In this document: positions 2,315 through 4,975 of the stretch, one piece after another | How positions within the stretch are numbered: position 1 is the first letter of the stretch | Layout: each line of letters begins with the position of its first letter | DNA from: a virus | Taxonomy: Duplodnaviria; Heunggongvirae; Uroviricota; Caudoviricetes | DNA: 7,144 nt | Virus record (IMG/VR): IMGVR_UViG_2703718811_000004 | Reading direction: 5' to 3' (one strand) | Made by a program: the position numbers and the translations under genes | The notes under the pieces: model-generated | Told to the model about the DNA's origin: nothing | The model's input: the letters and a program-made list of their open reading frames with translations, nothing else | The model's database searches: none

Positions 2315-3517
2315 TTACCAGCCGACAGACATACCCGCAGCAACACCTGAACCGTTCTGGGTATCCCATGAAGCATTCAAACGTACAGCAGAATTTTCAG
2401 TGGTGCGGAAGTGCATACCTGCTGCGATAGCCTGCTCATCACGGTAGTTACTTGCAGCCATACCAAAGGAGTACGTTTTACCCTCAACAACAGGAATGGC
2501 AGTCATCGCCATTGCTCCTGCAATACCTGCATCTGCACGTTTACGGTTTTTCTCCACCTCATCACGTAACTGACGGAATTGCTGATTAGTACTACGCTCC
2601 AGGGTACTGACCCGGTTATCTGTGTAGGTATTAGCAGACTTCAGTGTCTGTGCATCACCCTGAATACGGGCATTCTCTTCTGCAATACGATAGCGCTCTA
2701 ACTGACCATAGGTTGCGGCATCCGCAGCCTGAACACCATCACGAAGCCCACCAATTACACGATTCCCCACATTAACTTCATCGGGGCGAGTGGTCTGAGA
2801 GTTAGCCCCTACAGCAACACTGTTCGTATGGTTTGCAATGGCGTTGTAACCGACAGCAGTGGCGTTTTCTCCGCCTGCCGTTGCCCCGCCACCAACCTGA
2901 GTTTTACCGGTGCCCAGAGATGACAGACGGGCGTGAATATCTGTTACATCTGCAGCAGAAAGACCAGTGTCAATAGTGGCTCCATATTGCACAGCCTTCA
3001 TTTTAATTTCATAAATATATTCACTGATTTCAGGAATATGTCTTGAATATGTTTTTCCATCAGCGCCTACAGTCGAGACAACTCCTTCGCCATCTGCACT
3101 AAACAGAATTTGCTTGGTTTTTGTGTTTACAAAATAAGCTGTCTCATTCGCGTAATCATAATAAGAGACGATGTCTCCCCTTGGAGCAGCTAACTCGGTA
3201 TCTGTCAGGCCAGCCTTACCATAATCAATTAAGGTATATTTCAAATATTTACCGGAAACAGCGTCTATATTTAATGAGGTTGGTGTATTCCCGTCAAGAG
3301 AAATAACCTTACCATTCTCAAGCTTAATTAATGGATATCCATCTTGTTTATATACACCGATACCTTTCAAGAAATCCGCATGCTTTATTGCATTACTATT
3401 CAGAGTTTCAGGTGTAACGGAATAACCACTGGCATACGCCCCGACAGAAAATACCGACAGGCTTAATGCCGGCATTAAAGCCAACAATAGCTTGCTTGCC
3501 TTTTTCATGATTTTCAT
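2315..3517 (-). CDS. Trimeric autotransporter adhesin (YadA/Eib family), 400 aa: signal peptide, atypical N-terminal domain, short YadA-like head/neck repeats, coiled-coil stalk, C-terminal YadA membrane anchor.
   Basis: ORF-track protein. N-terminus MKIMKKASKLLLALMPALSLSVFSVGAYA is a Sec-type signal peptide. Head-repeat-like motifs ATAVGYNAIANHTNSVAVGANSQTT and neck-like DEVNVGNRVIGGLRDGVQAADAATYGQLE. Charged heptad-like stalk (RYRIAEENARIQGDAQTLK...RQLRDEVEKNRKRADAG). C-terminus AGIAGAMAMTAIP...YSFGMAASNYRDEQAIAAGMHFR...GVAAGMSVGW matches the YadA anchor pattern ending in GxSVGW. SD-like AAGGG about 8 nt upstream of ATG 3517. Family assignment is from memory of YadA/Eib sequences. Confidence 0.9.
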   Translation of the reverse strand: MKIMKKASKLLLALMPALSLSVFSVGAYASGYSVTPETLNSNAIKHADFLKGIGVYKQDGYPLIKLENGKVISLDGNTPTSLNIDAVSGKYLKYTLIDYGKAGLTDTELAAPRGDIVSYYDYANETAYFVNTKTKQILFSADGEGVVSTVGADGKTYSRHIPEISEYIYEIKMKAVQYGATIDTGLSAADVTDIHARLSSLGTGKTQVGGGATAGGENATAVGYNAIANHTNSVAVGANSQTTRPDEVNVGNRVIGGLRDGVQAADAATYGQLERYRIAEENARIQGDAQTLKSANTYTDNRVSTLERSTNQQFRQLRDEVEKNRKRADAGIAGAMAMTAIPVVEGKTYSFGMAASNYRDEQAIAAGMHFRTTENSAVRLNASWDTQNGSGVAAGMSVGW

Positions 3518-3780
3518 GATGTGTACCCTTATGTTAAATCATGTTATAAATATGTTGACATTCGGAACGCAAATGTCTTCAGGGATACTACTCACAATAA
3601 CAAGGCAAATAAAATATTAAAATCAATGAGTTAAGAAAAATTAACAATTAAAATCACAAGGATGCAATACGCATCAAAAACTTCCCCTAAATAACACCAG
3701 TATTACTCAGAAAAAACAAAACATTTTCTGTAGTTATTATTTACCATTGATAAATATTACCTCTCTCTGTCAGCCTGCAT
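3518..3780 (-). promoter_or_regulatory. AT-rich upstream regulatory region of the adhesin gene (putative promoter and 5'UTR; plausible target for nucleoid-protein silencing).
   Basis: Very AT-rich non-coding stretch (e.g. caaggcaaataaaatattaaaatcaatgagttaagaaaaattaacaattaaaatcacaag) directly upstream of the adhesin start. Candidate sigma70-like elements on the minus strand are TTGCGT then about 19 nt then TATAAC, ending about 25 nt before the ATG. No ORF of 60 aa or more on either strand. Promoter position not verified. Confidence 0.3.
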
Positions 3781-3837
3781 TGTATAAAACATACTCTGCA
3801 AACAGGTGCCATATCGGCTGAACCTCAGCAACCAGTT

Positions 3838-3859
3838 GACGGGGACTTTCGTCCCCGTC
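3838..3859 (-). other. Perfect stem-loop (9-bp GC-rich stem; loop GAAA on the minus-strand transcript) 10 nt downstream of the Hok-like stop codon.
   Basis: Plus strand gacggggac-tttc-gtccccgtc (3838-3859). On the minus-strand RNA the loop is GAAA, a GNRA-type tetraloop. No U-tract follows on the minus strand, so it is more likely a structural or processing element than a canonical terminator. Confidence 0.5.
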
Positions 3860-3868
3860 GCGGTTTTC

Positions 3869-4009
3869 CTACTGCTTACACTGTAAGAACGCCGCAAACT
3901 CCGCTCCCCACAAATTCAGCCGGAACTCACACAGTGAACCGTGCAACATCCAGATAGTGAAGATAACCGTCATACAAATTGTGACGGTGATAAGCGATTT
4001 TTGCGACAT
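3869..4009 (-). CDS. Hok/Gef-family type I toxin-like small membrane peptide, 46 aa.
   Basis: Manual translation from ATG (plus 4007-4009) to TAG (plus 3869-3871): MSQKSLITVTICMTVIFTIWMLHGSLCEFRLNLWGAEFAAFLQCKQ. It has a single N-terminal hydrophobic helix followed by the family-typical SLCE motif and a C-terminal E-x-AAF-x-x-C-K pattern (compare Hok/HokA-type peptides recalled from memory). Strong SD AAGGAG (plus 4019-4024) 9 nt upstream of the ATG. Below the ORF track's 60-aa threshold. Confidence 0.7.
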   Translation of the reverse strand: MSQKSLITVTICMTVIFTIWMLHGSLCEFRLNLWGAEFAAFLQCKQ

Positions 4010-4048
4010 AGCGCTTGACTCCTTTTACAGAGAGGCGCTAATCTTCTA

Positions 4049-4108
4049 CTTGCTTAAGGTATGATGGTCAGGGCCTCGGGTTAACGTTAAGTTGACTCGG
4101 GGCCTTTC
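4049..4108 (+). ncRNA. Candidate Sok-like antisense RNA (about 60 nt), complementary to the leader of the hok-like mRNA.
   Basis: Plus-strand promoter-like elements: -35 TTGACT (4015-4020, overlapping the hok SD on the opposite strand), 16-nt spacer, -10 GCTAAT (4037-4042), predicted start near 4049. Imperfect hairpin ggcctcggg (4072-4080) / ctcggggcc (4096-4104) with two G-U pairs, followed by TTT (4105-4107). Entirely sequence-based inference. Confidence 0.3.
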
Positions 4109-4163
4109 CACATCAGGCCTTCAGGTTCTCCCTCCAGCCATCAGCCGAAAGGCACCCACGCAT

Positions 4164-4192
4164 AATTTACGGTTTTTGCCCTGTACGGGCAA
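4164..4192 (-). promoter_or_regulatory. Candidate promoter of the hok-like transcript.
   Basis: Minus strand: -35 TTGCCC (plus 4187-4192), 17-nt spacer, -10 TAAATT (plus 4164-4169). The predicted start near 4156 coincides with the 5' fold-back element. Weak match to consensus. Confidence 0.3.
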
Positions 4193-4217
4193 TAAAAAAC
4201 CCGCCATCACAGCGGGT
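4191..4217 (-). terminator. Rho-independent terminator downstream of the lom-family gene.
   Basis: Minus-strand RNA: stem ACCCGC / GCGGGU (plus 4199-4204 paired with 4212-4217), 7-nt loop, then UUUUUAUU (complement of plus 4191-4198). Begins 24 nt after the lom stop codon (4241-4243). Confidence 0.6.
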
Positions 4218-4240
4218 AGTAAACGGTTACCGGATACAGG

Positions 4241-4975
4241 TCAGAATTTCAGGCCAATGCCAGCAGTAACGCCACTCGTGCGCCAGTCGCCAGAGCCGGA
4301 ACCTTCGTAAGCCACATCCAGTGTAACACTCTCATTCAGGTTAAACTGTGCACCTGCAGCCCACGCAAGGGAGGTTTTTTTCGTGCTGTTGCTTTCAGAA
4401 AATCCGCCACTACTGTTAATATTGTCCTTAATTTTCAGGTCAGCGCTAACTTTAGCAACGCCCATCCCTGCCATCGCATATAAACTCATGTACTGATTAA
4501 CCCGCCATGAAGGCCCCGCTAACAGACTCCAGTAATTCGCCCTGATATCCGTTCTGGCAGAAGCTGCCGGATTCTTAATCTTCCTGGTATGATCGGCTGA
4601 CTGCACATCAATAAATGTCTGTGAGTTAGTGAGAGAACGCGTCCATGTAAAAGAGGTGATAACGCCAAAATCATCCGTTATCTCGTAGCGATACCTGATA
4701 TTAATGCCCTGTGGATTTTTATCCTTGCCTTCATATCCACTGACCCGACCATCTGTATATTCGCCCAATGAAGAAAAGTAGTTTCTGTTGACGAAATGAC
4801 TGAAAGTCTCCCTGTTATGAGCAGTCGCATCCTTTACAAAATCCTTCAGTCCCGGAAACTGAAAGTGCGCATACCCCAGAGAAATTGTATGGTTTCCTTC
4901 TGCTGCATGTGCAGATAAATTTACACAGGCAATCCCGGAGATTGCACACACAACCAGTGTTGCTATACTCTTCAT
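4241..4975 (-). CDS. lom: Lom/Ail/PagC (OmpX) family outer-membrane beta-barrel protein, 244 aa.
   Basis: ORF-track protein with signal peptide MKSIATLVVCAISGIACVNLSAHA. C-terminus VAYEGSGSGDWRTSGVTAGIGLKF closely matches lambda Lom's C-terminal AYEGSGSGDWRTDGFIVGVGYKF (from memory), with a terminal aromatic residue. SD AGGA about 6 nt upstream of the ATG. Longer than lambda Lom (about 206 aa), so probably has extended loops. Confidence 0.9.
   Translation of the reverse strand: MKSIATLVVCAISGIACVNLSAHAAEGNHTISLGYAHFQFPGLKDFVKDATAHNRETFSHFVNRNYFSSLGEYTDGRVSGYEGKDKNPQGINIRYRYEITDDFGVITSFTWTRSLTNSQTFIDVQSADHTRKIKNPAASARTDIRANYWSLLAGPSWRVNQYMSLYAMAGMGVAKVSADLKIKDNINSSGGFSESNSTKKTSLAWAAGAQFNLNESVTLDVAYEGSGSGDWRTSGVTAGIGLKF

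Follow-up and report, generated by a model that had tools for sequence, protein, structure and literature searches.

The stretch of DNA analysed here (the window) comprises 7,144 nucleotides (nt) of a Caudoviricetes virus, IMG/VR record IMGVR_UViG_2703718811_000004, and the locus in question is a hok-like toxin gene on its minus strand, together with the leader of its mRNA and a predicted antisense RNA gene on the plus strand (Table 1). The encoded peptide matched the Pfam family PF01848 Hok/Gef (E 4e-8; 33 bits, cut-off 22) and belongs to PHROG 251, while the nearest named Hok by NCBIfam was hokA (NF007290) with 38 bits, below the cut-off of 89. It is identical to the representative 72_1589 of Hok cluster 72, listed as a high-abundance cluster (bioRxiv 10.1101/2025.08.07.668861). 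In the same work of Escalera-Maurer et al. 42 of the 45 Hok representatives tested were toxic and three others were named as the sole non-toxic ones (bioRxiv 10.1101/2025.08.07.668861), and by this list of exceptions 72_1589 was toxic on induction. Only the Hok coding sequence (CDS) was assessed there, with a constant Shine-Dalgarno (SD) sequence, Mok being stated as not analysed (bioRxiv 10.1101/2025.08.07.668861), and the leader architecture described below is absent from that study. The 46-codon open reading frame (ORF) stays intact in E. coli, Salmonella, E. albertii and Citrobacter and has a median ratio of non-synonymous to synonymous substitution rates (dN/dS) of 0.22 at dS of about 0.4, indicating purifying selection. 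The longer proteins of cluster 72 were all C-terminal read-throughs, and N-terminally extended homologues were accordingly rejected as a sign of an in-frame mok.

Around this ORF the hok/sok design is complete but for mok: promoter, pairing of the mRNA ends, the regulatory boxes, the 3' hairpin and a Sok-like antisense gene are all in place.

Table 1. Features of the hok-like locus, followed by the neighbouring genes of the window (positions counted from the first nucleotide of the window).
Feature	Position	Strand	Details
hok-like toxin CDS	3869-4009	minus	46 amino acids, MSQKSLITVTICMTVIFTIWMLHGSLCEFRLNLWGAEFAAFLQCKQ; ATG 4009 to TAG 3871-3869
Predicted hok promoter	4164-4192	minus	-35 TTGCCC 4192-4187, 17-nt spacer, -10 TAAATT 4169-4164, 6 nt, +1 G4157
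hok mRNA 5' end (tac)	4141-4157	minus	GGGUGCC 4157-4151 and CGGCUGA 4148-4141
ucb box GGCCCC	4099-4104	minus	pairs with GAGGCC (closed form) or with the 5' end (open form); Rfam consensus structure
GAGGC box	4073-4077	minus	SD of mok in classical loci, here with no start codon after it; invariant in the clade
Equivalent of the mok start	4054-4065	minus	AUC 4065-4063 (AUG in hokW), 3 codons, then TAA 4056-4054; hand alignment with hokW and R1-type leaders
TAA closing the third frame	4056-4054	minus	
TAG closing the second frame	4040-4038	minus	
TAA in the hok frame	4027-4025	minus	6 codons upstream of the ATG
dcb region	4032-4043	minus	GAUUAGCGCCUC; alternative pairings: upstream with GAGGCCCUGAC (open target hairpin), downstream within the SD hairpin, of which it is the 5' arm
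SD hairpin	4009-4040	minus	UAGCGC 4040-4035 with GCGCUA 4014-4009; CUCU 4032-4029 with GGAG 4022-4019
3' hairpin	3838-3859	minus	CGACGGGGAC-GAAA-GUCCCCGUC just past the stop codon; 9 bp, 99.6% paired
3' fold-back region	3804-3835	minus	3835-3822 with the Sok-target stretch 4060-4046; fbi 3821-3804 with the 5' end
Predicted Sok-like antisense RNA	4052-4112	plus	single-stranded 5' tail, 16-bp hairpin at about 4070-4106, then UUUCC; both ends predicted
Predicted antisense promoter	4015-4044	plus	-35 TTGACT 4015-4020, 18-nt spacer, -10 TAATCT 4039-4044; 8/12 consensus positions
lom	4241-4975	minus	Pfam Ail_Lom
YadA-like autotransporter ORF	2315-3517	minus	400 amino acids; Pfam YadA_anchor and YadA_head
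Tail-tip protein gene	5982-6860	minus	
Two small ORFs		minus	

In classical loci mok can be recognised by sequence as an ORF that starts with an ATG 6-9 nt past GAGGC, about 57 nt upstream of hok, and reads over the hok start; it shares the hok frame in R1-type hok, hokW, hokC and intact hokA but not in hokB. Relatives of HokE in Klebsiella carry 17-codon in-frame N-terminal extensions. For the window locus, the first-pass annotation had described all three upstream frames as closed with no later start, and the stops at 4027, 4040 and 4056 were confirmed. Direct reading and a script both found no ATG, GTG or TTG between any of the three stops and the hok ATG, and therefore no ORF started upstream crosses the hok start. 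The small ORFs of the leader (ATG 4141 to TGA 4123, ATG 4113 to TAA 4089 and GTG 4111 to TAG 4048) all finish at least 39 nt ahead of the hok ATG, and the site equivalent to the mok start, CCAUG in hokW and CCAUC in the window, is variable among clade members. Dinucleotide shuffles of the leader (n=2000) lacked any crossing ORF in 14% and an ATG-initiated one in 55% of cases; the absence of a crossing ORF in the window alone is not beyond chance and is meaningful only against the family. The SD, AAGGAG at 4024-4019 with a 9-nt spacer to the hok ATG, was correctly described as strong, albeit this is not a distinctive feature. The further suggestion that a canonical SD points to independence from mok turned out to be wrong, since the mok-dependent R1-type hok and hokW carry the same AAGGAG with the same 9-nt spacer.

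The comparison of leaders included 84 cluster-72 loci representing 48 distinct modules (from IMG/VR, GTDB genomes and assemblies; prophages of E. coli, Salmonella, E. albertii and Citrobacter), with the hokW clade (76 loci, 43 modules) as a control set. An ATG 5-13 nt after GAGG was present in 41 of the 42 hokW-clade leaders and in none of the 47 leaders of cluster 72, while an ATG-initiated ORF crossed the hok start in 38/43 and 11/48 modules, respectively. In-frame crossing ORFs numbered 35 in the hokW clade against none in cluster 72, and no crossing ORF whatsoever was found in 3 modules of the former against 31 of the latter. The 11 crossing ORFs of cluster 72 ran in another frame from ATGs at -103 or -130, so that about a quarter of the relatives have an accidental other-frame ORF from a different upstream ATG. 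This proportion (about 23%) is close to the chance expectation for a stop-free run of about 34 codons, and 1-nt indels in the leader distinguish near-identical relatives, the frames differing accordingly. Because the lack of an ATG after GAGG is common to all 48 modules (84 loci), the missing mok is, as judged from these sequences, an ancestral trait of the subfamily and not damage to the window copy. It had been considered that homologues might possess an intact mok mutated only here; none of those compared has one at the classical position.

Outside cluster 72, one cluster-73 locus (L176, IMG/VR UViG_2648501177_000008; peptide MSQNLL...) was likewise without a mok-type ORF, and its leader exceeded the Rfam RF01794 threshold with 79.6 bits. 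Scans of viral contigs gave no locus for cluster 42 and one for cluster 46, too few for a family-wide survey of mok. The hokE locus of E. coli K-12 (NC_000913.3 606500-609000) is annotated in RefSeq with sokE and hokE and no mokE; there is no start codon after its GGGGC box, and the ORF that runs over the hokE start is in frame and begins with an ATG 99 nt upstream, on the 5' side of ucb. Inside cluster 72, a Stx-phage copy (Stx, Shiga toxin; L026:1351-1716) is genuinely decayed: its promoter and hok mRNA 5' end are replaced by unrelated sequence, and the leader ATG is now ATA.

The predicted hok promoter agreed with the consensus at 8 of 12 positions, and its layout (-10, 6 nt, GGGUGC) also occurs in hokW, hokC, hokB, hokE and hokA and is kept in both genomic contexts of the clade. 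The full-length RNA (4157-3797) folded with -151.9 kcal/mol (z -6.7). In the minimum-energy structure the tac 5' end, which aligns to position 1 of Rfam RF01794, was paired with 3810-3804 and 3821-3814, and the fold in which the tac-ucb pairing was forced cost 0.5 kcal/mol only. When the structure was imposed on 26 relatives, 91% of cells were paired against 36-42% in slid controls, and compensatory changes were found at 24 pairs against 12.7 in shuffles (0/500), including helices 2, 7 and 18. Helix 2 (5' end with 3' end) and helix 7 (Sok target with 3' region) each had 3 covarying pairs, while in helix 18, the 3' hairpin, two pairs change from AU to GC in half of the clade. This hairpin is likely the protective end of the processed mRNA, a role corresponding to that of its R1 counterpart (PMC9841398). 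The ucb, GAGGC and dcb boxes were all present and 94-99% pairable without variation, the ucb pairs being kept at 94% and invariant.

On the opposite strand, the antisense fold of the leader reached -30 kcal/mol with a z of -6.1, whereas the sense strand gave -15 kcal/mol (z -1.6), and the hairpin was kept in the 26 relatives with G-U pairs that are possible on the plus strand only. The -10 element of the predicted antisense promoter (TAACCT in hokW and the other clade members, TAATCT in the window copy) and the TTG of the -35 element are invariant in the clade, their position is homologous to that of the sokW promoter, and the geometry matches that of the annotated sokW and sokC. The predicted start at about 4052 lies 27 nt upstream of the hok SD, with the -35 element located between SD and ATG. 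The window has a private A at 4042 (minus strand), where 25/25 other representatives have G; this change converts TAACCT into TAATCT and also produces a C-A mismatch in the hairpin predicted for the 'on' state. The only 100% match to the window cassette was found in E. coli ST866 (NZ_CP077646.1).

The SD AAGGAG at 4024-4019 is enclosed in a hairpin of -12.4 kcal/mol (z -3.7), whose basal stem was 99% paired in the clade with G-C to G-U changes only, and the probability of GGAG being unpaired was 0.01-0.04 in all folds of the window RNA. The upstream and downstream pairings of dcb are mutually exclusive. The RNAalifold consensus of the clade picked the upstream GAGGC/GCCUC pairing unprompted (96% of cells paired, no variation), and in local folds with GAGGC free 24/25 clade sequences formed the GAGGC/GCCUC hairpin. 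With GAGGC free, SD accessibility in these local folds was 0.15-0.5 in 24 members from E. coli, E. albertii and Citrobacter, against 0.00-0.02 in the same 24 members when GAGGC was removed, as it would be under bound Sok. No such GAGGC-dependent switch of the SD was seen in the local folds of hokW and R1-type hok.

Taking together the toxin ORF, the closed frames, the clade-wide lack of a start after GAGG, the covarying end-paired fold and the conserved antisense hairpin, we suggest with moderate confidence that the locus is a complete hok/sok-type cassette of cluster 72 in which mok is ancestrally absent and hok is probably controlled by a relay of RNA structures that works without mok and is reset by the antisense RNA. 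The relay is proposed to run from the 5' end through ucb, GAGGC and dcb/anti-SD to the SD because of the switch in the local folds and the low cost, 0.5 kcal/mol, of pairing the 5' end with GGCCCC. The full-length mRNA, transcribed from about 4157, would be inert: its 3' end (3835-3804) would pair with the 5' end and the antisense-target stretch, GGCCCC would hold GAGGC, and the 4040-4009 hairpin would lock the hok SD. Trimming of the 3' end back to the 3859-3838 hairpin would then allow the 5' end to take GGCCCC, and the freed GAGGC(CCUGAC) would pair with GAUUAGCGCCUC (4043-4032), taking the 5' arm away from the SD hairpin. AAGGAG would become exposed, and ribosomes might start at hok directly, with no leader peptide involved. 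Finally, the Sok-like RNA (plus strand, about 4052-4110) would pair with mRNA positions 4052-4110 and capture GAGGC, the SD hairpin would re-form and the duplex would be a likely substrate of RNase III; in this way the antisense would act at a distance via structure. The toxin and its family were already known; the clade-wide mok-less architecture and the predicted SD relay were not found in the searchable literature.

Several results weigh against this interpretation. A consensus promoter scan of the region listed neither the hok nor the antisense promoter, both being 8/12 matches, and no hok mRNA 3' end or terminator was assigned. The window leader scored 33.9 bits (E 7.6e-5) with Rfam RF01794, below the gathering score of 59; the cluster-72 relatives scored 31-47 bits and classical loci 84-125 bits, although the homology of the window leader to this family is real despite the curated threshold. 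In whole-molecule folds of the truncated window RNA the SD stayed closed (0.02-0.04 unpaired), and partial opening occurred in 933W-type relatives and not in the P2-type ones. In a Salmonella copy with the SD ACGAG (L009) the hairpin was formed and there was no switch (0.59 versus 0.63). The helices of the open form are invariant, so that covariation neither supports nor contradicts them, and A4042 weakens the open ('on') hairpin of the window. The mechanism has been derived entirely by computation. The experiments on R1, in which Hok is lost once the mok start codon is mutated or mok is stopped prematurely (PMC9841398), also speak against it and leave some probability to a silent locus, discussed below.

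Among the other explanations, a ribosome standby site survives best, although we regard it as unlikely. According to it, the SD hairpin stays closed, the 30S subunit preloads on the exposed, single-stranded GAGG/target-loop region (about 4077-4045) of the processed mRNA and slides to the hok start as the hairpin breathes, while the Sok-like RNA competes for the site, like IstR-1 on tisB. Such behaviour would agree with the SD being paired in every whole-molecule fold of the window RNA, with the invariant SD-like GAGG lacking a start codon, with about 12 nt just 5' of the SD hairpin that are unpaired in the truncated fold, and with an antisense site far upstream of the ribosome binding site (RBS), as in tisB/istR-1 (PMC4147584). 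However, the pairing partners of GAGG and the antisense hairpin account equally well for the conservation of this box, opening of the SD is predicted in relatives by local folds, and the binding of ribosomes at this region is hypothetical. Standby does not exclude the relay and is an equally legitimate sub-variant of mok-independent control.

Still less probable, in our opinion, is a silent or decaying locus, in which the hok SD is never usable without mok and the cassette is a fossil hitch-hiking in successful prophages. Besides the R1 mutations, it could be argued from the predicted sequestration of the SD, from the private A4042 weakening the 'on' hairpin, and from the existence of damaged copies (loss of the promoter and 5' end in L026, stop-codon read-through, truncated peptides). 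Against it, the ORF is intact in the four host taxa with dN/dS of 0.22, compensatory changes keep the long-range helices, the antisense hairpin and both promoters are conserved, and the cassette has travelled between sites next to lom and sites at P2 ends, its boundaries being sharp and identical; nor would an antitoxin gene be expected to persist for an untranslatable toxin. Decay of the window copy, which the first-pass annotation had left as an option, is thus not supported: all 48 modules share the lack of mok, covariation accompanies the conservation of the RNA elements, purifying selection acts on the ORF and the identical peptide is toxic. A variant logic acting through structure is favoured over decay.

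A third possibility, a cryptic leader ORF that replaces mok and opens the hok start region, seems very improbable. Its start would be AUG 4113, which has GAAGG 4 nt upstream, or else a codon other than AUG, for instance AUC 4065. The AUG within GAUGUGGAAAGGCCCC is conserved in the E. coli members, an ATG-initiated ORF from -103 or -130 spans the hok start in 11/48 modules, and the hokE of K-12 has an in-frame ORF from the equivalent AUG. In the window, however, the ORF from AUG 4113 ends at 4089 (80 nt upstream of hok) after 8 codons, and a stop follows AUC 4065 after 3 codons; the open fraction of about 23% is at chance level, with 1-nt indels shifting the frames among near-identical relatives, and the AUG is lacking in three Salmonella copies (L172, L173 and L175). 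Moreover, AUG 4113 is base-paired in the predicted fold and located at the 3' edge of the antisense duplex, because of which Sok could not block initiation there. The ORF from AUG 4113 was therefore rejected as a conserved substitute for mok on account of its variable frames, its being open in about 23% and the loss of the AUG in the Salmonella copies. Direct coverage of the hok SD and start codon by the antisense RNA itself, although common in other type I systems and suggested by the closeness of the antisense promoter to the SD, can practically be dismissed: the sole conserved promoter-like element of the plus strand has its -35 (4015-4020) between SD and ATG and directs transcription away from both, the duplex would stop 27 nt short of the SD given the predicted +1 at about 4052, and the annotated SokW and SokC share this geometry. 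Of the variant regulatory logic proposed in the first-pass annotation, structural occlusion of the SD thus gained support in silico, while direct antisense occlusion was not supported.

The window represents the late/tail end of a prophage of the Shiga-toxin type, similar to 933W/Sp5, with the hok cassette located directly after lom. Matches to 3700-4260 were obtained in 198 phage records, the majority from Stx-converting phages such as 933W and VT2-Sakai, and the cassette was found in 1672 of 5426 complete E. coli genomes (about 31%), with up to 8 copies per genome; PGAP labels its gene 'Hok/Gef family protein'. The edges of the cassette are sharp, at the hok promoter -35 (about 4192) on one side and just past the fbi GGCACC (about 3800) on the other, and the homology among clade members stops just beyond GGCACC. 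Two unrelated contexts were observed: in Stx phages the cassette follows lom, and in P2-like prophages (Salmonella, phage P88) it follows ogr at the prophage end. With sharp, identical boundaries in both, it behaves like a mobile 'moron'.

The intrinsic terminator of lom (stem 4217-4199 and T run, minus strand) overlaps the -35 region of the hok promoter. A match of the Xanthomonas small RNA (sRNA) family sX5 of Rfam at 4196-4232 (minus) was at chance level and was rejected, the sequence being the lom terminator. The similarity to 933W ends at the YadA-like ORF downstream of hok, for which the NCBIfam matches were far under the cut-offs, while the similarity to phage phiSTEC1589-Stx1c reaches at least 3700, the end of the query. 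The Salmonella sRNA STnc540 (Rfam, 178-186 bits) was located about 170 nt downstream of the hok cassette in P2-like prophage ends (L009:1809-1995, L172:1808-1989). Near-identical cassettes were also present on contigs labelled Xanthomonas pisi (857 bp), a Planococcaceae metagenome-assembled genome and Vagococcus sp. (L003, L004 and L006), labels that probably reflect assembly contamination. The annotation of this region in PQ600364.1 looks unreliable, since 'virulence determinant Bor' is given for lom, 'endopeptidase Rz' for a neighbouring ORF and 'terminase' for a small ORF. Some phage records name the hok gene 'MokW-like host killing', which is the name of PHROG 251.

In teaching, hok/sok is defined by its coupling to mok, which FASTBAC-Seq is said to have recently re-confirmed as mandatory in R1. 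Read jointly, our results raise the tentative possibility, to which we attach less confidence than to the relay itself, that a prophage-borne branch of Hok (cluster 72 and probably 73) has swapped mok coupling for a pure RNA relay gating the hok SD, with the Sok-like RNA serving as a structural reset instead of a block of initiation. The cassette is located on the sense strand after lom in the late operon, so that Q-antiterminated late transcription could raise the level of hok mRNA and interfere with the antisense promoter, making the locus a second induction-coupled lysis helper beside hokW in Stx phages. If so common a subfamily does work without mok, the Hok family would comprise two or more regulatory designs, the GAGG box would be retained for RNA pairing and not as an SD only, and annotation based on mok or on the Rfam leader model would under-call or mislabel such loci. 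Published single-locus deletions may understate the part of Hok toxins in lysis timing and phage release, because the 933W/Sp5-type phages carry the lom-adjacent locus besides hokW-sokW.

Among the known systems, one of the closest is hokW-mokW-sokW of the same phage type, from 933W and Sakai prophage 5, Sp5 (Takada et al. 2021, PMC8621323). It belongs to the same Hok family and to PHROG 251, and the 933W/Sp5-type Stx phages hold both the annotated hokW/mokW/sokW and the lom-adjacent locus; the two coexist in 933W and VT2-Sakai, and in 933W (AF125520.1) they lie about 13 kb apart, at 58460-58734 (hokW) and about 45408-45872 (window type). HokW, however, is a peptide of 51 amino acids (MKQQKAM...) from cluster 35, different from the window toxin in sequence and locus, and it has an annotated in-frame mokW, in line with the ATG after GAGG in 41/42 leaders of its clade. 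The identity of the window locus with the characterised hokW-sokW was rejected on the basis of the different peptide and phage position. The hokW-sokW pair has been tested experimentally, and the Sp5 deletion removed hokW-sokW only, leaving the lom-adjacent locus intact (PMC8621323). HokA shares the pattern M.QK...TWM..SLCE...E.AAFL.CK with the window peptide, but intact hokA has a classical in-frame mokA with the ATG 7 nt past GAGGC, and its leader reached 125 bits on RF01794.

With hok/mok/sok (parB) of R1, the paradigm among toxin-antitoxin systems belonging to type I, the window locus has in common the Hok/Gef peptide, a promoter followed by a GG(G/C)UGC 5' end, tac/fbi pairing of the ends, the ucb/GAGGC/dcb boxes, the hairpin past the stop codon, the SD AAGGAG with a 9-nt spacer, and an antisense RNA encoded in cis that has a 5' tail and a hairpin and is transcribed from a promoter located between GAGGC and the hok SD. 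In contrast to R1, it has no mok and no start after GAGGC, with all frames stopped, and its leader scored 34 bits on the Rfam model against 87 for the R1 type. The 13-14-nt inner hairpin between dcb and SD is also missing, which joins anti-SD and SD in a single compact hairpin with a 5' arm that overlaps dcb; in the predictions, the accessibility of the SD switches with the availability of GAGGC here and not in R1-type hok. The type I systems tisB/istR-1 and zorO/orzO, which have no leader peptide, resemble the window locus in their way of working and not in membership. In tisB/istR-1 the RBS is sequestered, the mRNA needs processing, and the antisense binds the 5' untranslated region far from the RBS, leading to RNase III cleavage (PMC4147584). 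The window locus fits this pattern in its RBS, predicted to be locked in structure, and in the antisense duplex ending 27 nt upstream of the SD. The toxins of tisB/istR-1 and zorO/orzO are, however, unrelated to Hok, their antitoxins are divergently encoded with limited complementarity, and activation proceeds by 5' and not 3' processing; the antitoxin gene of the window locus, unlike the divergent antitoxins of the tisB/istR-1 type, overlaps the toxin leader in cis.

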